Part shown: positions 853 to 63,212 of the stretch, one piece after another
Numbering within the stretch: the stretch's first letter is position 1
Layout: every line of letters starts with the position of its first letter
Source of the DNA: a virus
Strand: one strand, 5' to 3'
Virus record (IMG/VR): IMGVR_UViG_3300032020_000002
DNA length: 64,000 bases
Translations under genes and position numbers: made by a program
Notes under the pieces: model-generated
The model's database searches: none
What the model was told of the DNA's origin: nothing
The model's input: the letters and a program-made list of their open reading frames with translations, nothing else

Positions 853-1092
853 ATGGATGAAACTTCTAATTTAACCGAGGTCAAAGACCTTATTGTTACA
901 CAGCTTAAGGCAAACAGGGGGAGAAGATTTTCCGTTCTTGAACTGTATCGAATTTTGAAGGAAAAATACAACATCCAAACAACATATCAATCCCTTTTGA
1001 AATATGTTGAAATTATGGCTGTCTATGGCGACCTCAGATGCGAGGACTACCAGTCTGTAAAACTTATATGGATAGAAGAGGAAACAAAATGA
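853..1092 (+). CDS. small winged-helix-like DNA-binding protein
   Basis: ORF directly after promoter motif; basic helix-turn-helix-like segment. Confidence 0.5.
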   Translation: MDETSNLTEVKDLIVTQLKANRGRRFSVLELYRILKEKYNIQTTYQSLLKYVEIMAVYGDLRCEDYQSVKLIWIEEETK

Positions 1093-10410: not shown

Positions 10411-10471
10411 AGAAAGGGAAAAGGAAGGAAAGGAGACAGAACAGACCCAATTGGAGAAAGGTTGACGGTCA

Positions 10472-11044
10472 ATGGACGAAGGTGGGGAACACATGAGCTA
10501 TATGGCAGTTTATTTGATAATTGTTGGTATAATAGGGCTTTTGTCAATTCCTATTATTGAGTGTTGCAACCCATCGTGGTTAGTCACGCTTATCGGTGTC
10601 CTTTCAACGATTGCGTTTGGTTTGGGATTATACCGATTGATAGTTATCGGAGCAAACAGAGGCGAAGGGATGAACAAGAGTGGAATAAGGCACGATTCTT
10701 ATTGTTCCAGATTCAGTAGTTCCTTCTCTTCTTGCCTATCCGATTTAAAGTGGAAGTGGTTTCTTTGGAGAACATTCAGGTCATGGGAACATCATAATAA
10801 AAGCGTGTATAAAAAATACTGCAAAAAGGGATTCCACCAGTTAAACAGAATGGTGCAAATTTTGTGGCTTCCAAACAAAAAAGAATACAAAGTCGAATAT
10901 CTGAAATGCCCCTATTGCAACTACCTGTTTTTCTCAACAGTTGAAGATAAGAGGCTATATCTTGCTTTAACTGGAACGCACAGAAAGAAGATGTTGCAAG
11001 CGTTTGATAAAATAAGGAAACAGAGGAGAGTTCGGAATGTTTGA
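10472..11044 (+). CDS. membrane-anchored zinc-finger protein
   Basis: N-terminal TM; CPYCNYLF motif. Confidence 0.45.
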   Translation: MDEGGEHMSYMAVYLIIVGIIGLLSIPIIECCNPSWLVTLIGVLSTIAFGLGLYRLIVIGANRGEGMNKSGIRHDSYCSRFSSSFSSCLSDLKWKWFLWRTFRSWEHHNKSVYKKYCKKGFHQLNRMVQILWLPNKKEYKVEYLKCPYCNYLFFSTVEDKRLYLALTGTHRKKMLQAFDKIRKQRRVRNV

Positions 11045-12101: not shown

Positions 12102-12103
12102 GC

Positions 12104-12298
12104 ATGAATAAGAAAGAAAGAAATTTGTTCTTTATGGCGAAGGGCGGTAAAGAGTTATTCAGAGTCGGCTCTATAGTGTTATTGTTATTTTCATGGATTG
12201 GTCAGGGAAAGCTCGGCGTGGCACTAATATGGCTTCTGATATGGATTTTACTTGATGAATCAGACAGGAGAAAAATATGGAAAAAAAGGAAAGCATGA
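12104..12298 (+). CDS. small membrane protein
   Basis: hydrophobic. Confidence 0.4.
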   Translation: MNKKERNLFFMAKGGKELFRVGSIVLLLFSWIGQGKLGVALIWLLIWILLDESDRRKIWKKRKA

Positions 12299-12368
12299 AA
12301 GTCGAGCAAATTTATGTAGAAATTGATGGATTATTGATACCACTCGACATGGAAAGGGTAAACAAAGA

Positions 12369-13247
12369 TTGGTTAAATACATTGGAGAAGCAACTATGTT
12401 GAATAAAGTAAAAACTGGAAGCAATATGTATGAATTTTTGAACGAAAACGGTAAAGGATATACTTGGAATATTATTAAGGGAGAATGCACAGCCCACAAC
12501 TGTAGTTATTGTTACATGAAAAAGTTTAAGGTCGGAAAATTGCGTTTTGATGAAAAAGCACTATTCGACAATCTCGGCAAAGAGAATTTTATATTTTGCG
12601 GAAGTTCGACAGATATGTGGGCTGGAAATGTCCCTGCTGAATGGATAGTGTTGGTGTTATCAAGGTGTAACGAATGCCCAGAAAACACTTACCTTTTTCA
12701 GACAAAAAACCCAAAGAGGTTTGAAGAATTCTTGCCGATTTTGCCACCTAAAACCATACTTGCTACAACTATTGAAAGCAACAGGGATTATAAAGTGTCA
12801 TCAGCCCCACCACCGCTTAAAAGGGCGGAAGATTTCATGGCTATTGACTGGAAAAGGAAAATGTGCAGTCTTGAACCCTTAATGGATTTTGACTTGGAAG
12901 CTATGACAACAATCATCAAGAACATCAAACCAGAATTCATCAGCATCGGTGCGGACAGCCAAAAACACAACTTACAAGAGCCATCACCAGAAAAGGTCAA
13001 GAAGCTGATAGATGAACTTGCAATTTTCACAAGAGTTCATGTTAAAAACAACCTGAAAAGGATAACAGATAAATATAAAATGACAGTGGGCTGTGGCAAA
13101 ATAGTCAAACATTATTACGACCCGCATCCGTGCAACGAACTACTCAATATTGGTTTTTGGAAGTGGTTAAAATGCGGTGAACAAGACCCCTGTTTGCCAA
13201 ACCACTTGGTTTTATGTAAAAAATGCAAGGGAAGTGATGTAAAATGA
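12369..13247 (+). CDS. Gp37/Gp68-like (DUF5131) three-Cys protein, radical-SAM-related
   Basis: N-terminal CTAHNCSYCY cluster followed by FCGSSTDMW; phage-associated family. Confidence 0.4.
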   Translation: MVKYIGEATMLNKVKTGSNMYEFLNENGKGYTWNIIKGECTAHNCSYCYMKKFKVGKLRFDEKALFDNLGKENFIFCGSSTDMWAGNVPAEWIVLVLSRCNECPENTYLFQTKNPKRFEEFLPILPPKTILATTIESNRDYKVSSAPPPLKRAEDFMAIDWKRKMCSLEPLMDFDLEAMTTIIKNIKPEFISIGADSQKHNLQEPSPEKVKKLIDELAIFTRVHVKNNLKRITDKYKMTVGCGKIVKHYYDPHPCNELLNIGFWKWLKCGEQDPCLPNHLVLCKKCKGSDVK

Positions 13248-13576
13248 AACTGCTACATGAAAAGACGATAAGCGAATTGGTATTGTTTTGGGCAGATGAA
13301 TATGGTGGAGATTCAGTATGTTTAGATGAACTCAAACAATGGATAATAGCAATAGTGAAGAATTGTAATATTTGTTCCAAACACAGAGGTTGCAAGCATA
13401 AATGGATTGACGACCCGAAAACTCAATTTTCACCGCCGTTATATCTCTGCGCCAAGTGCGGAAAGCGTGATATGGATGATGATTTGAAAGGATGCGAAGG
13501 GTGCAAGAGGATTATGGAAATGTTTGAAATTGCCGAGGAGGATTTGAATGCAAACGACAAAAAAGACCAAAATTAA
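13244..13576 (+). CDS. Cys-rich small protein
   Basis: multiple CxxC pairs. Confidence 0.45.
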   Translation: MKLLHEKTISELVLFWADEYGGDSVCLDELKQWIIAIVKNCNICSKHRGCKHKWIDDPKTQFSPPLYLCAKCGKRDMDDDLKGCEGCKRIMEMFEIAEEDLNANDKKDQN

Positions 13577-13708
13577 CGGAAAGGAAGAAGTCATAGTTGA
13601 ACCGCAATTAGCCAACTTGATACTGGAATTAAACAAAAAGTTGGTCGAAGCAAAGAAACTTAACCATAAAATATTGAAAATGATAAGCGAACAATGAGGG
13701 GGTGAAGC

Positions 13709-14011
13709 ATGAAATTAGTGATAGAGGTCAATGAGATACCGAAAGAAGTCATGGAAGAGTTCGCACACATAGTGACGCAGTTCGTCAACGAATACTTCGA
13801 GTTCATAAACGCCGTCAAAATAGAATACGAAGAGGAACTGCCGAGGAAACCGCTTGTAATACCTTACCAACCGTTGCCATTTGACGAATGGGTTAAAAAA
13901 CACCAGCCGATATACCAATGGCAAAGGAAATGGGATTTTGAGAAGTATTATTGCGAGAAAACAAAGAAGCCACATAAATATCTCACGACCAAATTAAGAT
14001 TAAGAAGTTAG
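13709..14011 (+). CDS. hypothetical small protein
   Basis: SD GAGGGGGTGA upstream. Confidence 0.5.
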   Translation: MKLVIEVNEIPKEVMEEFAHIVTQFVNEYFEFINAVKIEYEEELPRKPLVIPYQPLPFDEWVKKHQPIYQWQRKWDFEKYYCEKTKKPHKYLTTKLRLRS

Positions 14012-14085
14012 GTGGGACAATCGCAAAGCCAATCGAAGGGACACCAGCATTAAAGGGGAAAGAAGCAGAGGAATTTATAAAAAAC

Positions 14086-14298
14086 ATGATTAAAAGGACA
14101 GAGGGAAAGCCAACAGAAAAGGACAGGGAAATGTTCAGAAGGATAATGCGGATGGATGACGGCAGACCGAGATGCCACCATTGCGGGAGAGCCATGATTC
14201 AAGTCAGGGACAAGACTTGTGGGAAGTTCACAGGTCATAACTGGAAATGCAACTGCAAGGATTTTCCTAAACATTTAGTAATTGGAACATTAGGTTAA
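14086..14298 (+). CDS. small zinc-finger protein
   Basis: CHHCGR...CNC. Confidence 0.45.
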   Translation: MIKRTEGKPTEKDREMFRRIMRMDDGRPRCHHCGRAMIQVRDKTCGKFTGHNWKCNCKDFPKHLVIGTLG

Positions 14299-14307
14299 GG
14301 AGGAATT

Positions 14308-14601
14308 ATGGATGAAAAATTAAGCGAAAAGGACAAGAAGGAACTCTATGAGATACGGGAGGCACAGTTCAAGGAAGTCGTGGATAGCGTCATGGAAAAG
14401 GGAGAAGAGACAAAGACTGAAATTTATAACGCCATAAAGGAATTGCCACAAGACCTGATTGATGACCCAGAAAAGGACAAAGAAAGGAAGATGATACTGA
14501 AAATGCTAAAGAACATAGTGCTGTCCAACGAGAAGATAGTGGATAATGTGTCCAAAATAGTTATCAGGGGTGCTGAACAGGAGATAGAAAAAGGCTTATA
14601 G
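14308..14601 (+). CDS. acidic small protein
   Basis: SD TAAGGAGGAATT upstream. Confidence 0.5.
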   Translation: MDEKLSEKDKKELYEIREAQFKEVVDSVMEKGEETKTEIYNAIKELPQDLIDDPEKDKERKMILKMLKNIVLSNEKIVDNVSKIVIRGAEQEIEKGL

Positions 14602-14644
14602 GTAAAAGCTATAAGTTTATAGTAAAAAGCTATAAAGGAACAAT

Positions 14645-15421
14645 ATGCCTATGTTCAATTTACTCGAATTAAGCAGTTATGAATTTTTGCAGTTCCTTGC
14701 AGTCTTTTTTATCGCAATCACAGCATTTTATTTTTTAGCTTACATAAGAAACTCAAGAAAACTTGCGAAAAAAACCAAAGGAAGGACATCGGTTTCATTT
14801 ACAGTGAAAAAGCTAAAAAAGAAAGAGAGAATGCAAATTTTCAGCAATTTGGCTTTCACATTCACGCTACTTTTTGCGTTATATGCATTGCATTTCCAAT
14901 ACCAGTATTACAACAACAGGGCGAGTGTATATTCATCGCTGGTCAGTAATTATGAAAAGCTGATACAGTTGAAAAACGAGCAGACAGAAGCCATTTCCAC
15001 AGACTGCATGAACATCATCCAGAACAGCGAAATGAAAATGGAAGACATAGAAAATCTTGTTCAGGACATAAGGCTGAATTATGACAGCTTGCAGGAAAAC
15101 TATTCAGATTGCCAGCAAAAACTTGACCAAATTTCTTTTATTAAAGCCGTAGAACCATTTGCGAGTAACCACACCTACGACAGTCATTTTTTCAACTGCG
15201 TAGATTATAGCCGAGGTTGTGTTGACATATGGACAGAAATGGGTTATCAGGCTTATACTAAATCTGTCCGTGTTGACTGCTCGTCAGGCTTGTTCGGTTG
15301 CGAAAAGGGGGACAATAATCGTCACATGATTGCTATGATTGAAGTCCCAGTCGAATGCACTTCCTCATATCCGTTCATCATTCCGCCTTCGGAGTTTTAC
15401 GCATACGGACTGACGGGTTAG
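14645..15421 (+). CDS. membrane protein with Cys-rich extracytoplasmic domain
   Basis: 2 N-terminal TM helices. Confidence 0.5.
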   Translation: MPMFNLLELSSYEFLQFLAVFFIAITAFYFLAYIRNSRKLAKKTKGRTSVSFTVKKLKKKERMQIFSNLAFTFTLLFALYALHFQYQYYNNRASVYSSLVSNYEKLIQLKNEQTEAISTDCMNIIQNSEMKMEDIENLVQDIRLNYDSLQENYSDCQQKLDQISFIKAVEPFASNHTYDSHFFNCVDYSRGCVDIWTEMGYQAYTKSVRVDCSSGLFGCEKGDNNRHMIAMIEVPVECTSSYPFIIPPSEFYAYGLTG

Positions 15422-15450
15422 TTTATTAAAATATAAGAATAAGGATAATC

Positions 15451-16032
15451 ATGGCGAGAATACCAAAGCAAAGGGTGAGATATGATATTTTCTGGAAAAT
15501 CGGAATCGTCAGAATGTGGTATTCGGTAAGTCCCAAAACGGACACGCCAATCCCCTTCTGCGAAATGCGTTGCATAATTTTTGCTCGCAGGAAGCCCAGA
15601 ACTATAACGGAGAAATTGCTTCTGATTGACAAGCTCAAAAAGAAGCTGGACACACTGGTTTTACTGACAACCACAGGCTTTCAGGATGCGGAAATAGGTG
15701 GGTTCATATATGGTGATGACAGCCCATTAAGGGAAGTAGAAGTGAAGGTAAAGAAAAAGCAAATCGGCAAGCTGATGGTGGAGATAAACGGACATGAAGC
15801 AGAACCGCTTGCTGTGATAAAAGCATACAGGATGGTCAATAAAGAGCCAGTGCAGACATACATCTTCAAGACAATCCCAAGACCGATTGAGCTTTATGAG
15901 AAATACGGAACGATTTACAGGTATATGGCGTTTTTTGATAAATTTGGGTTGCTCCGTGCCGATTATGATGAACAACAAATTAGAGAAATTGAAAAAAAGG
16001 TCTTTGCGTCATTTTTAGGTGCTAAACCATGA
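15451..16032 (+). CDS. hypothetical protein; homing-endonuclease target gene (ends ...YDEQQIREIEKKVFASFLGAKP)
   Basis: C-terminal 22 aa duplicated at end of next ORF. Confidence 0.55.
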   Translation: MARIPKQRVRYDIFWKIGIVRMWYSVSPKTDTPIPFCEMRCIIFARRKPRTITEKLLLIDKLKKKLDTLVLLTTTGFQDAEIGGFIYGDDSPLREVEVKVKKKQIGKLMVEINGHEAEPLAVIKAYRMVNKEPVQTYIFKTIPRPIELYEKYGTIYRYMAFFDKFGLLRADYDEQQIREIEKKVFASFLGAKP

Positions 16033-17117
16033 AAAAGGATTCACATCATAAACCAGCCAGCATAGAAAAAATGAGAATATCTCATATAGGTAAAAGGAAG
16101 TCACCAGAATCAATTAAAAATCAATCGGAAAGTTTAAAGGAATTTTATAAAACACACCAACATTGGCAAAAAGGTGTCCCAAGACCGCAATGGGTAAGGG
16201 AAAAAATAAGTAAAACTGAAAAAGGTCGTCCAAGCCCAATGAAAGGAAGGCATCATACAGAAGAAACTAAAAGGAAAATAGGGATTGCATTTAAAGGTAA
16301 AACTGGATTTAAACATTCTGAAGAAAATAAAGAGAAAATGAGTTTATCCGCTAATAAAAAATTCCAAAATGGGTATATACATCCAATGAAAGGCAAAAAA
16401 CATACCAGAGAGAGTAAATTAAAAATGTCAATTTCACAAAAGAAATTATATGTCGAAGATAAAAGGAAAATTTCCAAAGAAACACAATTTAAAAAGGGAC
16501 AAAAAAAACTACCCCATAAAATTGATTGCCAATGCTTCTTTTGCACGGGTAAGCCTCCACCTTGGACTGGTAAAACATTAGAAGAAATTGTCGGAGTTGA
16601 AAGAGCAAAACAAATAAGATTAAAACAATCAGAACGATTAAAAAATGAATATAAAAATGGCAAAAGGATTAGCCCACTTAAAAAATTAAGAAACACACCA
16701 GAATTTTCTCAAAAAATCATAAAAGGCATTGTTAAAAAACCGAATAAATGTGAACAGAAGTTAATTAACATAATTAATGATAATAGTTTGCCATACAAAT
16801 ATGTTGGAAATGGAAATTTCATGGTAGGGAACAGATGCCCAGATTTTATCAATTCAAATGGCTCTAAAAAAATCATTGAATTATTTGGCAGAACATATCA
16901 TTCTCCTCGTCATTCGTTTTTCAAAATATCTTATAATCATACAGAAAATGGAACAAAGGAATACTACAAAAATTTTGGTTATTCATGTTTAGTAATTTGG
17001 GATTATGAATTAAAAGAAAGAGCAATCGTTATTAACAAAATAAAAGATTATGATGAATTTGAAATTCGCAAATTGGAAAAGCAGGTTTTCGCATCATTCT
17101 TGGGGGCGAAGCCATGA
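16029..17117 (+). CDS. free-standing homing endonuclease-like protein with NUMOD3 repeats and C-terminal nuclease-like domain; carries recoded copy of upstream gene's C-terminus
   Basis: tandem KxGxxHSEETKxKIS NUMOD3-like motifs; ends YDEFEIRKLEKQVFASFLGAKP. Confidence 0.6.
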   Translation: MKKDSHHKPASIEKMRISHIGKRKSPESIKNQSESLKEFYKTHQHWQKGVPRPQWVREKISKTEKGRPSPMKGRHHTEETKRKIGIAFKGKTGFKHSEENKEKMSLSANKKFQNGYIHPMKGKKHTRESKLKMSISQKKLYVEDKRKISKETQFKKGQKKLPHKIDCQCFFCTGKPPPWTGKTLEEIVGVERAKQIRLKQSERLKNEYKNGKRISPLKKLRNTPEFSQKIIKGIVKKPNKCEQKLINIINDNSLPYKYVGNGNFMVGNRCPDFINSNGSKKIIELFGRTYHSPRHSFFKISYNHTENGTKEYYKNFGYSCLVIWDYELKERAIVINKIKDYDEFEIRKLEKQVFASFLGAKP

Positions 17118-17650
17118 ACTACTTTTTGCATGATAACAGGATAACAGCCGATTACGATTTTGAAAACGAATTAAAACTATCATTCTACATACTCAAGGGC
17201 ATTCTATTGCTCAAAAAACTTCCGAGCAAAATCAGGCAGACAGAAAGGGGATACCATGTCATCTTTTCTGGAATTGACACTTCAGATGAAAAAAGGTTTA
17301 CCCGAAGATTACAGCTTGGAGATGACAAAAATAGAATAAGGTTGGATAGGTCGAGTGAGAAAAGGCAGAAGCAAGTGCTTTTTTCAGAAAAAACAGTAAC
17401 CACTTTCGGATATATGCATCCAGTTTGGTTCAAAATAGTAAAAATCGAAAGCCCATCAAAGCATTTTAATGTCTGCCCGTTCTGTCATAAAAAAATAAGC
17501 CAAGCGAAGAAAATATGGACAGACGAATTGAGGGCGATACAGGTTTTCCATAAAAACTCACAACACATATGCGAATACAAATTACGCATGAAACCTCTTC
17601 CGACAATAATAAAGCTACTTAAAAAAACAGGAACAGAGGTGGTAACATGA
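17114..17650 (+). CDS. hypothetical protein
   Basis: ATGA overlap. Confidence 0.5.
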   Translation: MNYFLHDNRITADYDFENELKLSFYILKGILLLKKLPSKIRQTERGYHVIFSGIDTSDEKRFTRRLQLGDDKNRIRLDRSSEKRQKQVLFSEKTVTTFGYMHPVWFKIVKIESPSKHFNVCPFCHKKISQAKKIWTDELRAIQVFHKNSQHICEYKLRMKPLPTIIKLLKKTGTEVVT

Positions 17651-17937
17651 TGGTAAAATGCTATTACTGCGGTCAGCAAATAGACGGCGATGCCTATAGC
17701 TTACATCTGTGGAATATACACGATAAAGACATCAGGCATTTAGCCAAGCATAAAAAAAGAGGGATTATCAAGAAAATACCACTTTTGAACCGCAAGAAAG
17801 AGAGGGATTACAGCAAGGTCAAGGATTTCTTCAAGCCACCGAGAGAAAGGAAAACCTTAAAAATGGACTTTTTCAGGGGAATCATTTTCGGCTCTTTGCT
17901 GACGCTTGCTGGAATATTAATTTATCTTGTGATATGA
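17647..17937 (+). CDS. zinc-ribbon protein with C-terminal TM anchor
   Basis: CYYCGQ; hydrophobic C-terminus. Confidence 0.45.
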   Translation: MMVKCYYCGQQIDGDAYSLHLWNIHDKDIRHLAKHKKRGIIKKIPLLNRKKERDYSKVKDFFKPPRERKTLKMDFFRGIIFGSLLTLAGILIYLVI

Positions 17938-18123
17938 ATGCAGGTAATAGACGGAAGAAGGAAGATAACCTTCACGGACAAATACACAACGAGCTACAAC
18001 AAGGCAAAGGGGACATGGGGTTGCGACTGCAAGCACGGAAGCATAAATTCGTGCAAGCTCAAGGAACATCCGTGCAGGCATATCAAAAAGGCACAGGAAT
18101 TACTTAAAATTAATTTCATATGA
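17938..18123 (+). CDS. small Cys-containing protein
   Basis: ORF track. Confidence 0.4.
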   Translation: MQVIDGRRKITFTDKYTTSYNKAKGTWGCDCKHGSINSCKLKEHPCRHIKKAQELLKINFI

Positions 18124-18269
18124 AAAGACTAAAAGCTATTTTCGGGCTATCAAAACAGGAAAAATATTATATCCTGATATGCCTTTTCATAATCATCATA
18201 TTAATCACACTCCAAATACTCAATGATAATGGCACAATCAATGTTTGAACTCATGGAACAAATGCGAAC

Positions 18270-18660
18270 AAAATGTTAATCATATGATAATTTTAAGTTA
18301 CATATGCCTATTTCCTTCTGTGGGTTTTTTGTCATTTTGTTTTCGTTTGCACTTTTAATCGTCATGTGATAAAAAATAGCACATTAACCTATTAACACAA
18401 GACAGTTAGTTGGTTAAGCCAGCCCAGCGAAAAATCATCATGTGATAATTATGGATGACCGTAAAAAGGCACAGTCCCCAATTTGTTAATCATCATGTGA
18501 TAATAAACAGCACAATAACCTATTAACAGATGTCGGTTAGTTGGTTAAGGGAACAGGGAAAATAATCATGTGATGATAAAAGCTCAAACGGCACAGTAAC
18601 CTATTAACTGGGAGGGTGGCAATCATGTGATAAATAATGATAAAACTATAATAATAGTAT
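18270..18660. repeat. tandem array (~5 units, ~60-80 bp) built on AATCAT(CAT)GTGATAAT palindrome-like core plus CACAGTAACCTATTAAC and GTTAGTTGGTTAAG boxes
   Basis: Read directly; motif copies at ~18276, 18356, 18432, 18486, 18563, 18621. Confidence 0.7.
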
Positions 18661-18705
18661 CCCTTTTTAAATCTTATTGCGAAAATAATCATAAAAGGAA
18701 AAACA

Positions 18706-18914
18706 TGGGCGATACGACAGCTTATCTGCGAACAAGGTCTCAAGTTGTGGACAGGGGAATAGACATCCGTTCTTATGCAACTGTCAGCGATTCTGATAAT
18801 GATGTTGCGCTGAAGGTCGCTGTGGCAGGCGTGGTCGGGCAGGCTTCCGAACACATAGCGGTCAGACACGCACACAACCTTAAACAGCCTTATGCTTGGG
18901 GGAAGCAGTGGTAA
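18706..18914 (+). CDS. hypothetical protein in GC-rich block
   Basis: GC ~50% vs ~35% elsewhere; ATG within track ORF 18627. Confidence 0.45.
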
Positions 18915-18916
18915 AT

Positions 18917-19123
18917 ATGCCAGTTTCAATAAGGGTAAAGGAAGGGGGCAGTTCTGGTTCAGCCGAAAGCACCCGCACTTACCAGATAGATGGGGATATA
19001 AATTATAGGCGTAGCGCAGTCCCCACTCTTGCAAGATTGTCGCAAGCCGTTGAGCATAATATGGATTTTTACAGGGAGAAGGTCGCAAGGGATAGGATTG
19101 AAGCCATGCGGGGTGTTATGTAA
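18917..19123 (+). CDS. hypothetical protein in GC-rich block
   Basis: ATG 18917 after TAA 18912-14. Confidence 0.45.
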   Translation: MPVSIRVKEGGSSGSAESTRTYQIDGDINYRRSAVPTLARLSQAVEHNMDFYREKVARDRIEAMRGVM

Positions 19124-19503
19124 TGAGCGGAGGATGGTTCGATGCTTTCAAGGGGTTTGCTTTCCAAGGCAAGGGAGTCAAGATAGCCACTAATGCAGAC
19201 GGCTCGAAGGTTTGGGTCGAGAGGGAAGGCGAGACGCATATACTATCTGCTACCGAGAGAGCCATGCTCGTTGACACTGCGAGGGATATGGGAGCAGTTC
19301 TTGTTGACCCAGATGGCGTTTACAGGGATTCGGTCAGGTTTGAAGCGCATCTTGAAAGTCAGAGTGCGGATGTTCATTATCGTGCCAATATTCATAGTGA
19401 CTTTTTCGGCGGTGCTTACAACGAGCGAACCTACAGGGAGATGCAACAGAACATCGCCGACAAGGAACGGGAAGAACTGGCTAAAGTGGGGAGGCGTGGC
19501 TAA
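19123..19503 (+). CDS. hypothetical protein in GC-rich block
   Basis: ATGA overlap. Confidence 0.5.
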   Translation: MSGGWFDAFKGFAFQGKGVKIATNADGSKVWVEREGETHILSATERAMLVDTARDMGAVLVDPDGVYRDSVRFEAHLESQSADVHYRANIHSDFFGGAYNERTYREMQQNIADKEREELAKVGRRG

Positions 19504-19737
19504 ATGACTGATGATAAGCAGGTCGAATGCTGGGTTAGCACCCATGCGTCATTGCCGAGGTATGTCAAACCAGATGAACGCTATCCTGCTGATGTGACCA
19601 CCCATGCGGTAGCGAGAGGCGATACTGCCGTTGACAGAAGTGTAGCTTCCCAAATGGCAGGGCAGATAGGTAGCGGTCACGGCATTGGGGCTTTCCAATA
19701 CCTGTCCGATATGAAAAGGCATAAGGATAATGAGTGA
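19504..19737 (+). CDS. hypothetical protein in GC-rich block
   Basis: TAAATG junction. Confidence 0.45.
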   Translation: MTDDKQVECWVSTHASLPRYVKPDERYPADVTTHAVARGDTAVDRSVASQMAGQIGSGHGIGAFQYLSDMKRHKDNE

Positions 19738-19993
19738 TATGGGCGACACGGTAACTTTCAGAAGGCATCTGCACCTCGATTCATCACCACAGGGAGAATT
19801 AGTGCCGACTTTCTGCTCGGAATATGTTTCATACGGCAGGCATCATTTCTACACGGACACCAATATGAAACCGCCAACAAATGAAGAACTGTTTTCAAGA
19901 TACCCGCTTGACTTCATTGGCTACATAGGGGCATGGGTTTCCAGCTTCACAAAGAAACTGTGGAGAAAAAGGCAAGCCACCGATGGGATTTGA
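19730..19993 (+). CDS. hypothetical protein in GC-rich block (3' end overlaps tRNA)
   Basis: ORF track; overlap with tRNA makes 3' end uncertain. Confidence 0.35.
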   Translation: MSDMGDTVTFRRHLHLDSSPQGELVPTFCSEYVSYGRHHFYTDTNMKPPTNEELFSRYPLDFIGYIGAWVSSFTKKLWRKRQATDGI

Positions 19994-20060
19994 ACCCACG
20001 ACCTTTCGCTTTCCTGAATAATATACAGGGCGATTGCTCTTTCCGTTGAGCTACGGTGGC
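19975..20060 (-). tRNA. tRNA with ~13-nt intron-like insertion in anticodon arm; isotype unresolved
   Basis: Reverse complement reads GCCACCG-TA-GCTCAACGGAAAGAGC-...-GTGGGTTCAAATCCCAT-CGGTGGC-T: perfect acceptor, D and T arms. Confidence 0.65.
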
Positions 20061-20069
20061 AGAAACAGA

Positions 20070-20195
20070 TGGCGGAGAAGGGAATCGAACCCTTTTTGGG
20101 ACTAACCCACAGATTTCTCATAAAGAGTTTGAGTTTCAACCTTAACCAGACAACAAGTCTTTAAGTCTGTCGCATCTCCAACCTGCCCCCCCGCC
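20070..20195 (-). tRNA. long (~126 nt) tRNA-like gene, probably type II (Leu/Ser class) with intron(s)
   Basis: Reverse complement has GGCGGGG...AAGGGTTCGATTCCCTT-CTCCGCC-A (acceptor and T-arm); internal structure unresolved. Confidence 0.45.
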
Positions 20196-20486
20196 TTCGG
20201 AGTAAGAACCAATGCATAGCGTTTAGCATAACGCTAAAACGCTTGTCGTGGTGGTGAGCAAGTGTGCCATTTTCATCACAATTTTGGAGAGGGGCTATTC
20301 GCCCCAACTCCTATTTCATTTAACCAAACTACGAAGCAAAGGTTAACCTTTCTATTAATTATTATTATTTTGGCAGTTAAATTTAAATATCATTGCATTA
20401 CAATTTACTTATGCGCTGTCCATTGTGCTACGGCAAAAACTCCACTATGTAGGCTCTGACGAAGGGCTGGATAGTGGGGTGATTAG

Positions 20487-20747
20487 TTGAAGAAAATAGG
20501 AATGTCGTATTCAGATGGAGAAAAGCACATACAAGCGGACAACTTCTTGCCAAAAGAAAAACTCCGTGAACTATTTCCTGACGCAGAATATGTAACCCTC
20601 TCAATAACCATGAGAAGAAGGAGATATGCGAGGAAATCAGGCGGAGACGAAGAAGGTGGCAAGAAGAGGCAAAAGAAAAAGAAAAAAAGGTCATATGGAC
20701 TGTCCAGAGAAAAAATAACAATCAAGAATAAGGCAATCCATCTATAA
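20487..20747 (+). CDS. small basic protein
   Basis: ORF track. Confidence 0.4.
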   Translation: MKKIGMSYSDGEKHIQADNFLPKEKLRELFPDAEYVTLSITMRRRRYARKSGGDEEGGKKRQKKKKKRSYGLSREKITIKNKAIHL

Positions 20748-20752
20748 AAATA

Positions 20753-20776
20753 GTAACCTTTATAAATCTTGTTGCT
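20753..20776 (+). promoter_or_regulatory. BRE/TATA promoter AGTAACCTTTATAAATCTT
   Basis: ~25 bp upstream of ATG 20789; same motif as 817 and 22144. Confidence 0.55.
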
Positions 20777-20788
20777 AAAAAAATAGTC

Positions 20789-21007
20789 ATGGCTCGAAAG
20801 AAGAAAAATGAAATCACATCATACCAGTTGTTTTTCTTCATTATTTTCGCCTTTTTTGTGGTAGGCATAGCTGTGGCTCTGATTGACAGGGCAAGAATAA
20901 TGGCGGTAATCCTTGTCATTTTATTGGCATTAAATTTTGCACTTTTTAAAATTGGAGGTAAATATGGCAACAGCAGAAGAATTCAACCCATTAAGAACCG
21001 CCGTTAA
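20789..21007 (+). CDS. small membrane protein
   Basis: two TM helices. Confidence 0.5.
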   Translation: MARKKKNEITSYQLFFFIIFAFFVVGIAVALIDRARIMAVILVILLALNFALFKIGGKYGNSRRIQPIKNRR

Positions 21008-21845
21008 AACAGTGGCTTTTCTGCTTGTTATTGGCGTTGTTGCTTCCCTTGTTTTCGGAAGCATAGCGGTGATACCAGCAGGACACAGGGGCGTATTATT
21101 GACTTGGGGTAAAGTGGAAGACAGGATACTCGGAGAAGGAATAAGCACCATTACACCATTTTTGAATCAGGCGGTGCTGATGTCTGTCCAGACAATGAAA
21201 TATTCGGCAAAGGCGAGTTCCGCTTCCGCAGACCTTCAGATAGTAACCACCGAAGTGACCCTAAACTACCACATAGACCCTGCACAAGTGAACAGAATAT
21301 ACCAGCAATTGACTGTGGCTTACGAAGACAGGGTTATATCACCCGCAATTCAGGAAGCGGTAAAAGCCTCGACAGCCGAATTTACAGCAGAGGAACTGAT
21401 AACAAAAAGACCCATGATTAAAGAGGCAATAGAAACAGCATTAAAAGAAAAGTTAGTGAATCATGGAATAATCGTGGAAAGCGTCTTTTTGACCGATTTC
21501 AAATTCAGTCCAGAGTTCGAGACGGCAATAGAGTCGAAGGTTACTGCACAACAGCTTGCACAGAAAGCAGAAAACGACCTAAAGAGAATAAAGGTCGAGG
21601 CAGAACAGGTGATAGCACAAGCAAACGGAACGGCAACTGCAAAGCTGACAATAGCCACAGCAGAGGCACAGGCAATCAAACTACAGGGTGAGGCATTAAG
21701 ATTAAACCCCGAAGTAATTCGTCTCCGTGCAGTGGAGAAATGGACGGGATTAATGCCACAATATCTCATAATGGGTAGCGGACAAGATAACGGTCTTGCT
21801 GGACTCATTTTGAATATGCCCACGCCACAAAAAGAAGGGGGGTAA
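20964..21845 (+). CDS. SPFH/band-7 (stomatin/prohibitin-like) membrane protein
   Basis: N-terminal TM then AVIPAGHRGVLLTWGKV...; SD TGGAGGTAAAT upstream of ATG 20964. Confidence 0.75.
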   Translation: MATAEEFNPLRTAVKTVAFLLVIGVVASLVFGSIAVIPAGHRGVLLTWGKVEDRILGEGISTITPFLNQAVLMSVQTMKYSAKASSASADLQIVTTEVTLNYHIDPAQVNRIYQQLTVAYEDRVISPAIQEAVKASTAEFTAEELITKRPMIKEAIETALKEKLVNHGIIVESVFLTDFKFSPEFETAIESKVTAQQLAQKAENDLKRIKVEAEQVIAQANGTATAKLTIATAEAQAIKLQGEALRLNPEVIRLRAVEKWTGLMPQYLIMGSGQDNGLAGLILNMPTPQKEGG

Positions 21846-21847
21846 AC

Positions 21848-22141
21848 ATGGACATTACCCTCCTTTTTCTTTTATTTTTTGGAATTTTTGGTTGGTTTAT
21901 GTGGAAAACTGATTTCGAGCATCCCATAGCTGGAATAACAATTTTTATCATAATTCTTACAGTGTTGACAACAATTTCCCCACAAGTTTTTGTTTTATCA
22001 TCTATTTTCAACAGCACTTGGGAAGAGAATTCCACGCAAAACCTCACGCAGAATCATACGCCGAATCCTTATTTGACCAATCTGACGCAACCAAATATAA
22101 TAGAAGCGAAAGAGCCTTGGTCAAATGACTGGCTAAAATGA
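21848..22141 (+). CDS. small membrane protein (possible SPFH partner)
   Basis: two TM helices; immediately downstream of SPFH gene. Confidence 0.45.
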   Translation: MDITLLFLLFFGIFGWFMWKTDFEHPIAGITIFIIILTVLTTISPQVFVLSSIFNSTWEENSTQNLTQNHTPNPYLTNLTQPNIIEAKEPWSNDWLK

Positions 22142-22143
22142 TA

Positions 22144-22160
22144 GTAACCTTTATAAATTT
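22144..22160 (+). promoter_or_regulatory. BRE/TATA promoter AGTAACCTTTATAAATTT
   Basis: upstream of ATG 22179. Confidence 0.55.
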
Positions 22161-22178
22161 GAAAGCTATTTTAATAGT

Positions 22179-22331
22179 ATGGAAGAAAAGAAAACCCTTT
22201 TTTTGAAGTATAAATGCCCATATTGCGGTGCGGTCAATGTCACCAAAAAGCAGAATCCTCTTCAGTGTCCGAAATGCCACACCAAATACAAAAAAAAGAA
22301 GCCTGAAGTGATAAGGACAGTGGAAGTGTGA
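22179..22331 (+). CDS. small zinc-ribbon protein (CPYCGA...CPKCH)
   Basis: hand-translated 50 aa. Confidence 0.45.
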   Translation: MEEKKTLFLKYKCPYCGAVNVTKKQNPLQCPKCHTKYKKKKPEVIRTVEV

Positions 22332-22720
22332 ATTACTTCCGAATCAAAGAAATATTGAAAGAGAAGGACATTTTGAACAATGGGCGTGATTTCAAATATG
22401 GTTATAATCGCACAAAATTTCACAGTAAGTATGAAGGAATTGGGCATTTCATATCAAAGGCAATGCTTTCATTCCTGATTTTCAGCAAGAAAGGAGACGG
22501 AGTTGTCACGGAGTGCGAAATGAGCAATGGAAGGGTCATAGATATACTCGCAATTACAAAAAGTGGGAATTTAATCGGTTACGAGCTAAACAACACAAAA
22601 CCAGACAAATTGGAAGTAAAAGGAGTGGATACCGTTGACATACCGCTTGAGGAGATGCCAAGTGAAGCTAAAATAGGTCTGCTGGCACTTAAAAAATGGC
22701 TTGAGGAATACATGGTGTGA
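22328..22720 (+). CDS. hypothetical protein, possible PD-(D/E)xK nuclease fold
   Basis: GRVIDILAITKSGNLIGYELNN segment; GTG start. Confidence 0.35.
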   Translation: MNYFRIKEILKEKDILNNGRDFKYGYNRTKFHSKYEGIGHFISKAMLSFLIFSKKGDGVVTECEMSNGRVIDILAITKSGNLIGYELNNTKPDKLEVKGVDTVDIPLEEMPSEAKIGLLALKKWLEEYMV

Positions 22721-22724
22721 TGAT

Positions 22725-23042
22725 ATGAAAATAAAGCAAATTGACTATTCCGAACTGAAAAGCATAGAAGGGACTTTCAACAATGTCAGAATAGGCATGA
22801 TAGCAGAATTGCAGAAAGGGGAAGACCCAGATGCCGTCATGGTCAACCTGAAAAATAAGGTGAGGGAGGAAATAGCCAAAGTCGTTTTCGATGGCAACTG
22901 GAAAATTCACGAATATAACCAGCAATACGATAAGCTGAAAGAGGATGTAAAATCACTCAAGGAAATCAAGGACACACTTGAGAAGGAAATCTCTGAACTA
23001 AAAGTTGTCAAAAATTACTTCAAAAATAAAGTGAAAAAATGA
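22725..23042 (+). CDS. coiled-coil small protein
   Basis: ATG within track ORF 22701. Confidence 0.45.
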   Translation: MKIKQIDYSELKSIEGTFNNVRIGMIAELQKGEDPDAVMVNLKNKVREEIAKVVFDGNWKIHEYNQQYDKLKEDVKSLKEIKDTLEKEISELKVVKNYFKNKVKK

Positions 23043-23296
23043 ACACATTTGAAAAATTTGGAATAGCCATCGGACTTTCCTTAATCATTACCTGCCTCTT
23101 TGAGATTTATTTCATTTACACGCTTTACATAAATGCGGATTATGTCAAGTGCAACTGGCTGTGGTGCGACTTCGTGACGCAAACTGGTGAAATAATCATA
23201 AACCAGACCATGACAAAGACCTGCTATCTTGATGGTGTTCAAGTGAATTGTTCAGAGCTAAAAGATGCAGGTGCTACTGATGGCTGGCGAACTTGA
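23039..23296 (+). CDS. small membrane Cys-rich protein
   Basis: N-terminal TM. Confidence 0.45.
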   Translation: MNTFEKFGIAIGLSLIITCLFEIYFIYTLYINADYVKCNWLWCDFVTQTGEIIINQTMTKTCYLDGVQVNCSELKDAGATDGWRT

Positions 23297-23380
23297 CGCT
23301 TGGGTGATGTTTTATGTTTATGCATTGCTTATAATGTCATTGTGTGCTTTAATTGCATTATATAAACTTGGGGTGATTAA

Positions 23381-23806
23381 ATGAAATTCAATAGGAGAAT
23401 GAATATCGCTAACCGATGGCAAAATGTGGAACTTTCAGACGAGGAAGTGGATAAAGCTATCGAAGAGCTTCTGGAAAAAAATTACATACAACTTAAACTA
23501 TGTATGCAAAAAGTTTCCGAGCTTGATTTAAGCGATGACCAAAAGATAGAATTGGCAACAGCGTTGTTCAACAGTTCGTCAATAGCCTGCTACACCATGC
23601 TGGGCAGTAAAATCGAAGAAAAAGCGTCAGAAATAAAAGGCGGAAAACCATACAAGCCAGTCCAGCCTGAAACCATCAAAAAGGCAGAGGAAGTCGCTGA
23701 AAAGAAACTTTCTGAAAAGCCCGAAATAGAAGAAGAGCATGAGCCATCACTGATAGATGTGGCGTTTTCGCAAATAAATGACGGAAAAATGCGAACAGGG
23801 TCTTGA
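23381..23806 (+). CDS. acidic hypothetical protein
   Basis: ORF track. Confidence 0.5.
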   Translation: MKFNRRMNIANRWQNVELSDEEVDKAIEELLEKNYIQLKLCMQKVSELDLSDDQKIELATALFNSSSIACYTMLGSKIEEKASEIKGGKPYKPVQPETIKKAEEVAEKKLSEKPEIEEEHEPSLIDVAFSQINDGKMRTGS

Positions 23807-23836
23807 GAAACTCGAAAATGATAAGAAGGGGAAGGG

Positions 23837-24076
23837 ATGCGGACAAGAGAGTTCAGTAAATCGTGCAGATTCAGGTATAACGAGTTCAGGACAGGCGATA
23901 CAAGAAAGGGGGCAGGCGAACACACCATCTATGATAGATGCCTACTGATAAAAACTGGCAACAGCAAATGCCTTTTTATGGACTGCACACATCAGGATTG
24001 CCCACTTTCAACCGAAAAGAAACACAAAGTAAAGGGAGGAACTGCAAGATTCAAAGGGAAACATAGAAATAATTAA
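23837..24076 (+). CDS. small basic Cys-containing protein
   Basis: ORF track. Confidence 0.4.
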   Translation: MRTREFSKSCRFRYNEFRTGDTRKGAGEHTIYDRCLLIKTGNSKCLFMDCTHQDCPLSTEKKHKVKGGTARFKGKHRNN

Positions 24077-24100
24077 TAATGCATTACCATCCTTTTTATA
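24070..24100 (+). promoter_or_regulatory. promoter class 2: GCATTACCA box + TTTTTATATT
   Basis: AAACGCATTACCAAC-TATA motif also at 26655, 27565, 45647, 47248, 47685. Confidence 0.45.
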
Positions 24101-24121
24101 TTCTCCGATTGAATTAATTTT

Positions 24122-26690: not shown

Positions 26691-26697
26691 TAATCAC

Positions 26698-27561
26698 ATG
26701 ATTAAGATTTTCATATTGGCAATTATAGCCTGTCTTTTAATTTCTTTAGGCACGGCAAGTGCAATCCCTTATAAAGACAAGGACATACAGAAAATAGAAT
26801 TCGTTCACTATAAGGATGTCAAAAATGCCAAATCGACACCGCAAGCAGTTGAAAAGTGCTATAAAACCCTCGGATACAAATGGGGCGTTTTGCCAGTAAG
26901 TTATATGATAAATCCGATAAACCCTGATGGTTTAAGCGACAATTTCATAAAATCGGCGATTGTCAGTTCCACCGAGACTTGGGATATTGCAGTCACCAGC
27001 AACCTATTCCACGATTATCCGAGCATCAGCTATTTAGTCAGTTATGGCGTTCAGGACTTCAACAATGCAATCGTATTCGGAGATTATCCAGACAACAATG
27101 TTATAGCAGTAACAAGCCTGTGGGTCACATCAAAAAAGAAGCAGATTGTAGAATTCGACATAAAATTCAATACGAGGTTCAAATGGGGCGATGCGACAAA
27201 CCCGCCTACGAACACATCCTGCACACAGTGGGAACAGCAATGCCAGTGGTTGTATGATGAGTGCGCAAAATGGGACAATATAACTTATGAGAACGGAACA
27301 GTTGAGGAAATATGCGTTGAATGGCAACCCGTCTGTTGGGATTGGCAGGATGTCTGCGTAAACTGGCAAACTGACATAATTCCAGTAATGGATTTGCAGA
27401 ACATAGCGACACATGAACTCGGTCACGCAGTGGGTCTCGATGACATTTACACTTCAACTTGTTCAGAAGTTACCATGTATGGATACTCAACTTACATGGA
27501 AACCAAAAAGAGGACACTTGAACAGCCCGACATCAAAGGGATTTCGGGCATTTACCCATAA
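26698..27561 (+). CDS. secreted metzincin-type zinc metalloprotease
   Basis: signal peptide; HELGHAVGLDD zinc-binding motif followed by Met-turn-like TMYGY. Confidence 0.7.
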   Translation: MIKIFILAIIACLLISLGTASAIPYKDKDIQKIEFVHYKDVKNAKSTPQAVEKCYKTLGYKWGVLPVSYMINPINPDGLSDNFIKSAIVSSTETWDIAVTSNLFHDYPSISYLVSYGVQDFNNAIVFGDYPDNNVIAVTSLWVTSKKKQIVEFDIKFNTRFKWGDATNPPTNTSCTQWEQQCQWLYDECAKWDNITYENGTVEEICVEWQPVCWDWQDVCVNWQTDIIPVMDLQNIATHELGHAVGLDDIYTSTCSEVTMYGYSTYMETKKRTLEQPDIKGISGIYP

Positions 27562-57976: not shown

Positions 57977-58869
57977 TGGAAGAAAAAAACTGGATAATAC
58001 ACAACAGAACCTTCATTTTTGGTGGCGGGGAAGTTTGGCAACCAGACTGCAATAAAACAAGGACTGAAATACTTTCAGATTTTACTACCAAACCAGATGA
58101 ATTTTTGCCTAATGGTAAGTGTTTCGGAAGGTTAGTGGGGAAAGTTATGGGCGATGTATGCACACCATTGCTACAAGAAGGAGTGGCATTCGTTGAAAGC
58201 ATACCAGAAAACATGAAAATAGGTTTGGGTCATGGTGGAATGCTTGGCGGTTTAGACAAAGAAATGACTTGGATACCCGTTGATGAGCAAAAATGCAAGG
58301 AAGCACAAAAATTGGATGAAAAAAGAAAGGAATTGGAGTCGTGGGAGTTGTCAAAGAAGATACCCGATGTCTATTTTGCGCCAAGCACTTTACAGGAAGC
58401 AGAAGAATGTAAAAAATACAAGGAAAACATTGAAAAGATTGACAAGCCCATTCTGGATGCCATAAGGAAATGCTTTCTTTTGGAAGATGGCAAATTTATC
58501 AATAAATCACCATCCGCAATTTCAGCAAAAATAACAACTGAATGCGACCTTGCGCCATTCCGAATTTCGGACAATATAACGGAACTTGTGGAAAGGGGAA
58601 TAACCAATCCAGAAACAGTAAAAAGCGAGCTTAAAAACTGGGGTAAAACCATGAGGGACATCAAAAAGGTTTACCACAATACTGAAACGCCATTTATCAT
58701 TGAAACGAAAGACGGGCAAAGATTTCTTGTTGCTCCCCGTGTCGGTCAAAAATCCGATGATTGTTATAGCGTGGAAAGCCACATAAAATATGAATTGAGA
58801 AAAAAAGCAGAAGCCATAAACAACCAGATTGAAGAGTTGGCGAGCAAAAGGCTTGAAAAGGTTTATTAA
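57976..58869 (+). CDS. last array gene (297 aa); ends RLEKVY
   Basis: ORF track. Confidence 0.55.
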   Translation: MEEKNWIIHNRTFIFGGGEVWQPDCNKTRTEILSDFTTKPDEFLPNGKCFGRLVGKVMGDVCTPLLQEGVAFVESIPENMKIGLGHGGMLGGLDKEMTWIPVDEQKCKEAQKLDEKRKELESWELSKKIPDVYFAPSTLQEAEECKKYKENIEKIDKPILDAIRKCFLLEDGKFINKSPSAISAKITTECDLAPFRISDNITELVERGITNPETVKSELKNWGKTMRDIKKVYHNTETPFIIETKDGQRFLVAPRVGQKSDDCYSVESHIKYELRKKAEAINNQIEELASKRLEKVY

Positions 58870-58890
58870 TCATATGATTATAGTGATAGT

Positions 58891-59085: not shown

Positions 59086-59272
59086 TGCATTTTCTCATTT
59101 CATCTATCCTGTCCAGAACTTTTTCCATGTTGTCGTCATCAAGAGAGTTGAACCATTCTACGAATTCTTTGACTCTTGACGCTATCGCCAAATCCTTTTC
59201 GCTATCTTTTTTAGACATATTACCCTCCTTATTTATCATATGATAATTATTGGGAGGCATCAAAGCAGGCAA
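59069..59272 (-). CDS. hypothetical small protein
   Basis: ORF track. Confidence 0.4.
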   Translation of the reverse strand: MPALMPPNNYHMINKEGNMSKKDSEKDLAIASRVKEFVEWFNSLDDDNMEKVLDRIDEMRKCIKICA

Positions 59273-62732: not shown

Positions 62733-63212
62733 TTACCTTTCTTTCAGCAGGTCGAACAGAAGTCCAGCGAGCATTTTCGTTCTCACTTTTTCATTCATCA
62801 GTTGTTCTTTCAGGCTGGCATTTTCCATTTTTATTTTCTGCGTTTCTGCGAATTTGTCGCTTCTAACCACTTTGTCCCTGTTTTCGAGTTCCCCTTTCAG
62901 GGTGTTTATTTCCGTGTTCAGCATATCTATAACCTTTTCGTTCCTTTTTTCAACCATTTCTTCATTTCCTGCATAGTTATAGAAGCTGTGTTTCGTGTCT
63001 GAATAGTGGCAACTTGTCTTTTCCAAAGTTTTGGTCGCATAGCCACTTTTTATCAGATATGTAAGCAAACTGCTCGTATCCTTTTCAGATACGCCATTCA
63101 GTTCTAATGCGACCTCATGGACACATACAGGTTTGCCTCTTTTCAGTATTTCACGGATTTTTCCCGCAACAGAGTTTTCTTTTATGTGATTGTTCATGTA
63201 TTTTACCTCCAT
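62733..63212 (-). CDS. winged-helix DNA-binding protein with C-terminal coiled coil
   Basis: N-terminal HTH-like segment. Confidence 0.5.
   Translation of the reverse strand: MEVKYMNNHIKENSVAGKIREILKRGKPVCVHEVALELNGVSEKDTSSLLTYLIKSGYATKTLEKTSCHYSDTKHSFYNYAGNEEMVEKRNEKVIDMLNTEINTLKGELENRDKVVRSDKFAETQKIKMENASLKEQLMNEKVRTKMLAGLLFDLLKER

Follow-up and report, generated by a model that had tools for sequence, protein, structure and literature searches.

The stretch of DNA analysed here (the window) comprises 64,000 nucleotides of the IMG/VR virus record IMGVR_UViG_3300032020_000002, and its 18.28-18.63 kb region holds a cluster of near-palindromic sequences, referred to below as motif B. The cluster lies in a 456-bp non-coding gap (18249-18704) between two plus-strand gene blocks, which is the longest non-coding gap of the window except for a tRNA gap. 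Direct reading of the letters revealed six copies of motif B at 18277-18633 (Table 1). Copy 0 begins 29 bp past the last stop codon of the upstream gene block (18248) and is followed by a T-rich tract, five further copies, a stretch of 80% A+T, and the ATG at 18705; the array as a whole has the T-rich end of one operon on its upstream side and the TATA box of the following operon on its downstream side. Judging from its composition only, the T-rich tract (18325-18349) appears to be an archaeal-type oligo-T termination zone of the 853-18248 operon, and a search for a bacterial-type terminator at this tract found none. The A+T-rich stretch (18623-18702), tied third among the 80-bp segments of the genome, contains a conserved TATA box and the purine-rich ribosome-binding region of gene 18705. 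This TATA-like box at 18664 was the only one found in 18249-18704 by a plus-strand search for TTTWWAWW, and it is kept even in distant relatives that lack the array.

The centre-to-centre spacings of the six copies are irregular (82, 76, 55, 73, and 57 bp). Apart from one 131-bp duplication (18355-18448 and 18486-18579, 78% identical), no long repeat is present, and Tandem Repeats Finder called no array at 18.3-18.6 kb. The preliminary description of this DNA had proposed five or more tandem units at 18356-18640, each followed by conserved boxes. The copies are real, and every motif position listed in that description was confirmed within a few bases, but the units are not uniform, being heterogeneous and 55-82 bp apart. 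As for the boxes, GCACAnTAACCTATTAAC follows three of the five units (18379, 18510, and 18591) and is degenerate in a fourth (18469), while GTTAGTTGGTTAAG follows two (18405 and 18536). A CRISPR-like origin of the units, or one from IS200/605 ends, was considered and rejected, given the irregular spacing and the lack of likeness, by eye, to the ends of the TnpB element (5697-6994).

Motif B is enriched, and it is placed at operon starts. The parent contig (73,423 bp), which was found by exact-protein match, continues for 9.2 kb beyond the end of the window, and this extended genome of approximately 73.2 kb holds approximately 40 motif B sites. Alignment of 34 oriented sites gave the consensus tTAAT(T/A)ATCA-YR-TGAT(A/T)ATTAa, a palindrome of approximately 20 bp with A+T-rich flanks, and no conservation was seen outside it; the copies at 58867, 26691, and 38558 are perfect palindromes. 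With at most one mismatch, ATCATGTGAT gave 31 matches, compared with 7.7 +/- 2.9 (largest 14) in dinucleotide-preserving shuffles, and the 14-mer TAATCAYRTGATTA with at most two mismatches gave 16 matches, compared with 1.5 +/- 1.2 (largest 5). Twelve of the 15 strict cores (ATCA-YR-TGAT) are intergenic, with genes called heuristically from open reading frames (ORFs) and intergenic DNA making up 8.4% of the window (binomial P = 4e-11). The preliminary description had staked its operator reading on a frequency above shuffling controls and on an intergenic bias, and both were found. Shuffled intergenic DNA contained 0.036 strict cores versus 11 observed, and, when the array was excluded, 0.02 versus 6. 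When 8-mers were compared without bias between intergenic and coding DNA, ATCACATG and TCACATGA belonged to the top-ranking families, together with the GCATTACC motif, TATA-like words, and ACAAC repeats. Beyond the window, further arrays lie at 64.2-64.6 kb (five sites; locus L066 8625-8950), 67.0-67.1 kb (three sites; locus L066 6088-6192), and 68.3-68.6 kb (six sites; locus L066 4616-4881), with copies 40-72 bp apart and each array upstream of a minus-strand operon.

The pattern of conservation is informative about how the motif would be read. In the relatives L011/L012, L063, and L065 (85-90% nucleotide identity), all six array sites are retained, and only one of the remaining sites is missing; L001-L010 are 96-100% identical and uninformative. 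Changes were counted in relatives with 12-15% nucleotide divergence, for which the intergenic background is 13.4%. The ATCA/TGAT arms were changed at 2 of 111 positions, both times toward the consensus (P = 4e-5 versus background). Of 28 centre positions, nine were changed, always to another Y-R pair (P = 0.009), and the flanks were changed at background level (7 of 56). At 61720 and 61823, the centre is inverted from TG to CA in L065, and the surrounding sequence keeps its orientation. Arms that are constrained around a centre that is free to invert are what a two-fold symmetric dimer would select, and this argues against a directional promoter element. The locus L073, whose primase-helicase is 51% identical, carries the variant TTATCA-YR-TGTTAA, with an array of approximately six copies before the primase-helicase gene and three more downstream. 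We also considered that the array might be a non-functional remnant of local A+T-rich duplications, with the other matches arising from composition. The 131-bp duplication does explain some of the copies, but the shuffle controls (16 versus 1.5 and 11 versus 0.036), an intergenic bias that persists without the array (6 versus 0.02), and arm-specific conservation across relatives and unrelated loci make a remnant extremely improbable.

We believe that the 18.28-18.63 kb cluster probably consists of six sites for one homodimeric DNA-binding protein, which would control most operons of the virus. Binding by a protein, the identity of the binder, the sign of regulation, and cooperativity between sites are what we infer from this pattern. 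The operator for a dimeric regulator named in the preliminary description is supported by the dyad, the conservation of its arms, the placement at operon starts, and, at several promoters, the position between TATA box and start codon, and its term regulatory hub is a fair one. In the contact pattern that we propose, the ATCA/TGAT arms would be contacted and the YR centre would not.

The promoter geometry points in the same direction. Upstream of start codons, TATA-like boxes are most frequent at a distance of 24-27 nt, and another group is found at 36-39 nt; as read from the sequence, such distances are those of archaeal leaderless and short-leader promoters. At four sites (58867, 38558, and, in the extended genome, 67006 and 68317), a TTTA(T/A)(T/A)A(A/T) box runs directly into the left arm, and the start codon lies 9-21 nt past the right flank, so the palindrome fills the interval from the TATA box to the transcription start. 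This interval is the classic archaeal repressor position, in which recruitment of TFB and RNA polymerase is blocked. At these TATA-fused sites (58867, 38558, and the two beyond the window), a dimer sitting between TATA box and start would block that recruitment and cause repression. The array would work differently. Stepwise filling of its six sites could form a cooperative, concentration-dependent switch of the 18705-30271 block, either repressing or activating, and it could act through oligomerisation or looping to the 18664 promoter or by upstream activation. A bacterial extended -10 promoter (TGtGATAAT) was tried as an explanation of the motif and rejected: sigma-70-type sites are not enriched, the TATA geometry is archaeal, and site orientation inverts between relatives.

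A genome-wide operator set of a viral regulator is a known kind of system; this one is unusual in its copy number and in its upstream arrays, and the virus belongs to a little-known lineage with probable archaeal hosts. The archaeal virus regulators SvtR (SIRV1), AvtR (AFV6), F55 (SSV1), and Stf76 (pSSVx) have been reviewed (PMC5569661). These small virus-encoded dimeric regulators bind several viral sites, eight in the case of AvtR and repeated sites at several early promoters in the case of F55 (PMC5569661). Their sites overlap the B recognition element, the TATA box, or the start, or sit approximately 80 nt upstream of the TATA box, with oligomerisation along the DNA, and oligomerisation or looping toward the promoter has been proposed for SvtR and AvtR (PMC5569661). 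The present virus resembles these systems in having several sites per viral genome and in the use of host TBP, TFB, and RNA polymerase. However, most of those regulators are of the ribbon-helix-helix type, and their sites are different, shorter, or imperfect. PMC5569661 lists three to eight sites per genome and no arrays of five or six copies, compared with approximately 40 predicted sites here. Archaeal virus regulators with known DNA targets are very few, each controlling a handful of sites. The virus described here offers a testable regulon of approximately 40 sharply defined copies, present in at least two lineages and accompanied by a candidate binder, but no new kind of mechanism is revealed.

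Several observations weigh against the operator reading. The six array sites miss both the TATA box and the start site, lying 40-390 bp upstream of the former, which is unusual for simple repression. Within the tandem arrays the centre is nearly always TG and in one orientation, which tandem duplication or a directional function could explain. Site 26691 is absent from L011, and motif B was not found in the more distant relatives L013, L037, and L072. L013 and L037 are without the array and keep only the proximal TATA box and the ribosome-binding region of the 69-amino-acid gene. The binder could equally be a host protein, the intergenic statistics depend on the heuristic gene calls mentioned above, and the box C sequences described below fall outside the operator model and are unexplained by it.

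Table 1. Coordinates of motif B sites, the features of the 18.28-18.63 kb array, and other elements of the window (positions in window numbering).
Feature	Position	Strand	Sequence	Remarks
Motif B copy 0	18277..18290		TAATCATATGATAA	perfect 10-bp core palindrome; unchanged in all relatives
T-rich tract	18325..18349	+	TTTTTTGTCATTTTGTTTTCGTTTG	read from the letters
Motif B copy 1	18359..18372		TCGTCATGTGATAA	first arm GTCA; centre G to A in L011, arms kept
Box C dyad 1	18379..18418	+	GCACATTAACCTATTAAC, 8-nt spacer, GTTAGTTGGTTAAG	predicted hairpin, -10.1 kcal/mol on + strand
Motif B copy 2	18435..18448		TCATCATGTGATAA	
Degenerate GCACA box	18469..18485	+	GCACAGTCCCCAATTTG	upstream stretch, including GCA of GCACA, rewritten in relatives
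Motif B copy 3	18490..18503		TCATCATGTGATAA	same 14-mer as copy 2
Box C dyad 2	18510..18549	+	GCACAATAACCTATTAAC, 8-nt spacer, GTTAGTTGGTTAAG	predicted hairpin, -9.4 kcal/mol
Motif B copy 4	18563..18576		TAATCATGTGATGA	
Box C half-copy	18591..18608	+	GCACAGTAACCTATTAAC	without partner arm
Motif B copy 5	18620..18633		CAATCATGTGATAA	centre ~41 bp upstream of TATA box; centre G or A in relatives
TATA-like box	18664..18672	+	TTTTTAAAT	centre 37 nt before ATG 18705
First gene of downstream operon	18705..18914	+		69 amino acids; gene block continues to 30271
Two motif B sites	617-630, 680-693			upstream of the 853-18248 operon
Motif B, perfect	26691..26704			overlaps ATG of 26698-27561; not kept in L011
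Two motif B sites	38469-38482, 38558-38571			in divergent gap; second fused to TTTATTAA box ahead of two-helix membrane protein gene 38593
Motif B, perfect palindrome	58867..58880			fused to TTTATTAA; centre 17.5 nt before ATG 58891
Motif B	59233..59246			upstream of minus-strand gene 59069-59218
Two motif B sites	61720-61733, 61823-61836			upstream of primase-helicase-like operon; central TG/CA inverted in L065
Two weaker motif B sites	62339-62352, 62390-62403			between minus-strand genes; three in L065
Candidate binder	62733..63197	-		154 amino acids; winged helix-turn-helix and long coiled coil
Second motif	24077-24121, 26654-26697, 27562-27604, 47246-47290, 47672-47726, ~45680			reverse copies near 440, 20400, 38490
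tRNA-His-GTG	19975-20060	-		11-nt intron in anticodon loop
tRNA-Leu-TAA	20070-20195	-		45-nt intron in anticodon loop
tRNA-Ser-TGA	45453-45642	+		115-nt intron in anticodon loop; explains the 301-bp gap 45404-45704

Box C (GTTARTWGGTTA) is the only feature that sets the 18.3-18.6 kb array apart from the other three arrays. It has five exact copies, all exclusive to this array, laid out as two inverted pairs with 8-nt spacers and one unpaired copy. In the rest of the window it is not enriched (13 matches versus 18 expected, with at most two mismatches). Both arms are identical in the two dyads, and the spacers differ at six of eight positions, a pattern suggesting that the arms are important, be it as a second protein-binding site or as a hairpin. 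The predicted hairpins are less stable on the minus strand (-8.0 and -5.1 kcal/mol) than on the plus strand because of G-U pairs. No oligo-T run follows them, and no covariation exists between the copies, since their arms are identical. One of the hairpins is partly deleted in L015, L016, and L038, and an Rfam search of the array region gave no family match above noise.

These hairpins and the orientation of the motif B centres bear on the possibility that the units are tandem promoters or small-RNA genes, each driving the downstream operon or a short box C hairpin RNA. Haloarchaeal rRNA operons and the T7 early region are known to have tandem promoter arrays, and the TG centre does point toward the downstream genes in three arrays and at 38.5 kb. 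However, no array unit has a TATA box of the virus's own type, and the palindrome lies at a distance from the GCACA box that ranges between 13.5 and 27.5 nt. In addition, the five-site array at 64.2-64.6 kb runs opposite to the gene downstream of it, and the orientation of two sites differs from one relative to another. For the small RNAs, the greater stability of the hairpins on the plus strand is favourable, and the whole gap folds slightly better than shuffles (z = -2.8), a value that is not decisive; the partial deletion of one hairpin and the absence of covariation, of trailing oligo-T, and of an Rfam family are unfavourable. We consider promoters or small-RNA genes of this kind rather unlikely.

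The preliminary description had also suggested an iteron-type origin at the cluster. In such an origin, an initiator would bind the repeats, and the box C dyads together with the A+T stretch 18623-18702 would form an extrusion or unwinding element. The locus has some of the expected properties: it is the largest repeat cluster of the window, it occupies the 456-bp gap at a module boundary, its box C dyads are found nowhere else and keep their arms while the spacers have diverged, and 80% A+T DNA adjoins the array. The lambda ori, the iterons of P1, F, and R6K, and the archaeal origin recognition boxes likewise have several protein-bound repeats beside an A+T stretch in a long non-coding gap. 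Iterons, however, are direct repeats of 17-22 bp, approximately two helical turns apart, at one locus by the initiator gene. Here the repeats are palindromes at irregular distances (55-82 bp in this cluster, 40-82 bp over all arrays) at four or more loci: the motif recurs in arrays at three or more other loci, in pairs at 0.6, 38.5, 61.7, and 62.3 kb, and as single sites at some twelve promoters. The gene of the primase-helicase-like protein (59322-61436) lies at a distance of 41 kb and comes with motif B sites of its own. Cumulative GC skew, which had been proposed as a check, rises smoothly through 18.5 kb without inflection and tracks the coding strand, and the A+T stretch holds the TATA box and ribosome-binding region of gene 18705. 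An origin at the cluster is thus quite unlikely, and region 57-850 is at least as good a candidate. This mostly non-coding region is flanked by ACAAC/ACTCA pentamer repeat tracts (57-83 and 724-784), carries two motif B sites, and reaches the highest A+T content of any 80-bp segment of the genome (149-228, 87.5%). A weak ORF within it (134-367) is probably not a gene.

Among the encoded proteins, the 154-amino-acid product of 62733-63197 is plausibly the best candidate binder of motif B. Members of its family match HTH_5, HTH_IclR, HTH_24, and Z-alpha. Its structure model (19 sequences; predicted local distance difference test score, pLDDT, 88.8) consists of a winged helix and, after it, a 75-residue helix that forms a coiled coil, with fold matches to TFE-alpha, MarR, PadR, BlaI, and the archaeal virus/plasmid regulator Stf76. 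The five-site array at 64.2-64.6 kb stands at the head of the operon that contains this gene, and the protein is also encoded in L065 and L073, both of which bear the motif. In Thermococcales, the glycolytic motif TATCAC-N5-GTGATA is bound by TrmB-family regulators composed of a winged helix and a coiled coil. The half-sites TATCA(C)/(G)TGATA are shared with motif B, and the TrmB architecture resembles that of the candidate; we regard this as a lead only. The half-sites are separated by 0 nt here and by 5 nt in the Thermococcales motif, and no TrmB Pfam match was obtained for the candidate. Of the several winged helix-turn-helix proteins that had been claimed for the window, the one at 62733..63212 was borne out, while that at 853..1092 was not confirmed. 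The latter protein (79 amino acids) has no Pfam match, its single-sequence model reaches a pLDDT of 74, and Foldseek returned nothing below E = 1, although winged-helix regulators populate its match list. Among ten small proteins adjoining motif B sites, no DNA-binding Pfam match was found, and one is a glutaredoxin.

A further protein, encoded at 31775-32866, has a ParB_N domain and a helix-turn-helix-like segment, and it raises the question of a centromere-like or genome-organising role. An AspA-like winged helix, perhaps together with this ParB_N protein, would then nucleate on the arrays and spread, serving segregation, compaction, or packaging. The F sopC centromere consists of 12 repeats of 43 bp, with a 16-bp palindrome in every repeat, and other centromere arrays include the dispersed N15 centromeres, the pSM19035 omega heptad arrays, and the pNOB8 AspA site; the N15 and pSM19035 sites also regulate transcription. 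The arrayed or dispersed short palindromes of the present virus, with their predicted binding of a dimeric protein, recall sopC and the N15 centromeres in particular, the core TCA-YR-TGA is similar to the central part of chromosomal parS (TCACGTGA), and the pNOB8 centromere-binding protein is among the fold matches of the 154-amino-acid protein, at rank 22. However, dozens of ordinary winged-helix regulators match that protein at least as well. The ParB_N protein differs from Noc and partition ParB in having GHHRLEA in place of GERRWRA, and its PDB match (E = 1e-3) covers the N domain only. No ParA-type Walker motif (GxxxxGK[ST]) was found in ORFs of at least 80 amino acids in the 73.2 kb, a weak screen that missed an encoded MoxR-type AAA ATPase. 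Spacing is irregular, and the operator-like placement of several sites between TATA box and start codon points to transcription. We therefore find a centromere improbable.

A broader proposal combines these elements with regulation: the arrays could be nucleation platforms on which the winged-helix/coiled-coil protein spreads or bridges, setting the temporal programme and also organising, replicating, or segregating the genome, with the box C array serving in addition as an origin or packaging entry. We consider this unlikely, though with a small chance of being correct; if it were true, it would concern a previously undescribed lineage of large archaeal viruses.

The operator reading can also be compared with the repressor sites of temperate phages. 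The P1 C1 operators and the conserved inverted repeats of phiC31 are genome-wide repressor sites of this type. So are the stoperators of mycobacteriophages L5 and Bxb1 (PMC9283540). The likeness lies in tens of copies of one 13-17-bp site, located mostly in short intergenic gaps at operon starts; in the phages, a single repressor shuts down many transcription units through these copies. Stoperators, however, are asymmetric, orientation-dependent, and bound by a monomer, whereas motif B is a dyad with an invertible centre. The hosts of all these phages are bacterial. The present virus gave no sign of lysogeny, no integrase screen having been made.

Motif B does not stand before every operon. 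The operons without it (24122, 26698 in part, 27605, 47291, and 47727) have GCATTACCAAC directly before the TATA box, and therefore at least two promoter-associated motif classes exist in this virus. The second motif, (A/T)RCGCATTACCAAC with the core palindrome TAATGCATTA, stands directly before a TATA box that is 24-28 nt upstream of the ATG, and GCATTACC is the most intergenic-enriched 8-mer of all (six intergenic occurrences, none coding). The second motif marks large structural-looking genes and the start of a small-gene array, which suggests a separate temporal class. Together, the motif B regulon and this second promoter class (GCATTACC plus TATA) would map the temporal programme of the virus.

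The uncultivated virus of approximately 73 kb probably has an archaeal host, to judge from its intron-bearing tRNA genes, its TATA promoter geometry, and its archaeal homologues, and this host is probably a sediment archaeon. The tRNA genes that had been claimed beside the cluster do exist on the minus strand and carry introns. All of the tRNA genes were missed by ARAGORN with default settings; Rfam found those for His and Leu, and ARAGORN with introns allowed found all three. The His and Leu genes are antisense to the surrounding plus-strand genes and have their own TATA-like promoter near 20390. Of 19 genomic relatives of the TnpB protein, 16 are archaeal. The 704-amino-acid protein of 59322-61436 has named homologues from Bathyarchaeota, Methanomethylicaceae, and other archaea, some of them fused to PrimPol or Toprim domains, and is therefore probably a primase-helicase. 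Nearly all of the large proteins go unrecognised by PHROGs and Pfam, and the proteins scanned gave no match to a terminase, a portal, or an HK97-type capsid. The tandem paralogues 38593-38796 and 38888-39091 encode 67-amino-acid proteins with two hydrophobic helices, and these resemble, by description only, the capsid proteins of spindle-shaped archaeal viruses (PMC10541130). No terminal repeats were found between the two ends of the extended genome.

Searches for further relatives of the locus returned little: the INPHARED phage records gave no match to 17-21 kb, IMG/VR contained no relatives of two flanking proteins, an IMG/VR search with the array 17-mer gave single, unrelated matches only, and a metagenome pattern scan for the conserved proximal promoter found three loci only. 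Instead of the array, L013 (5240-5620) has three copies of GGTTTGGTT(T/C)GG...TTCATG, and L037 has a tRNA-like sequence; both also have an antisense ORF of 97 amino acids there. The Logan contig of L065 ends (positions ~1-35) in the Illumina adapter AGATCGGAAGAGCACACGTCTGAA, approximately 60 nt beyond a four-copy motif B array. In the 73-kb contig, the sequence continues without interruption at the homologous position, and the L065 end is therefore more likely an assembly artefact than a genome end.

Mobile elements are present as well. A TnpB (Cas12f1-like TNB) gene lies at 5763-6872, and an SF2 (superfamily 2) helicase encoded on the minus strand at 35443-37458 contains an intein with an HNH/NUMOD3 endonuclease. 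The primase-helicase-like protein of L065 (4569-8075, P0016) contains a LAGLIDADG intein, which the copy in the window lacks. Near-identical contigs (L002, L004, and L005) differ by extra IS200/605 units (Y1 transposase with TnpB, and additional TnpB) and by homing-endonuclease genes, and we believe that these elements are actively turning over in the population. A G+C-richer gap of 186 bp without an ORF (45963-46148) may hold a structured RNA, with no Rfam match at the gathering threshold. In the small-gene array of L072 (3903-9386), nine gene junctions share GGAAGTGATGTAAATGG, made up of a Shine-Dalgarno-like sequence together with stop and start codons, suggesting that these genes are tandemly duplicated and translationally coupled.

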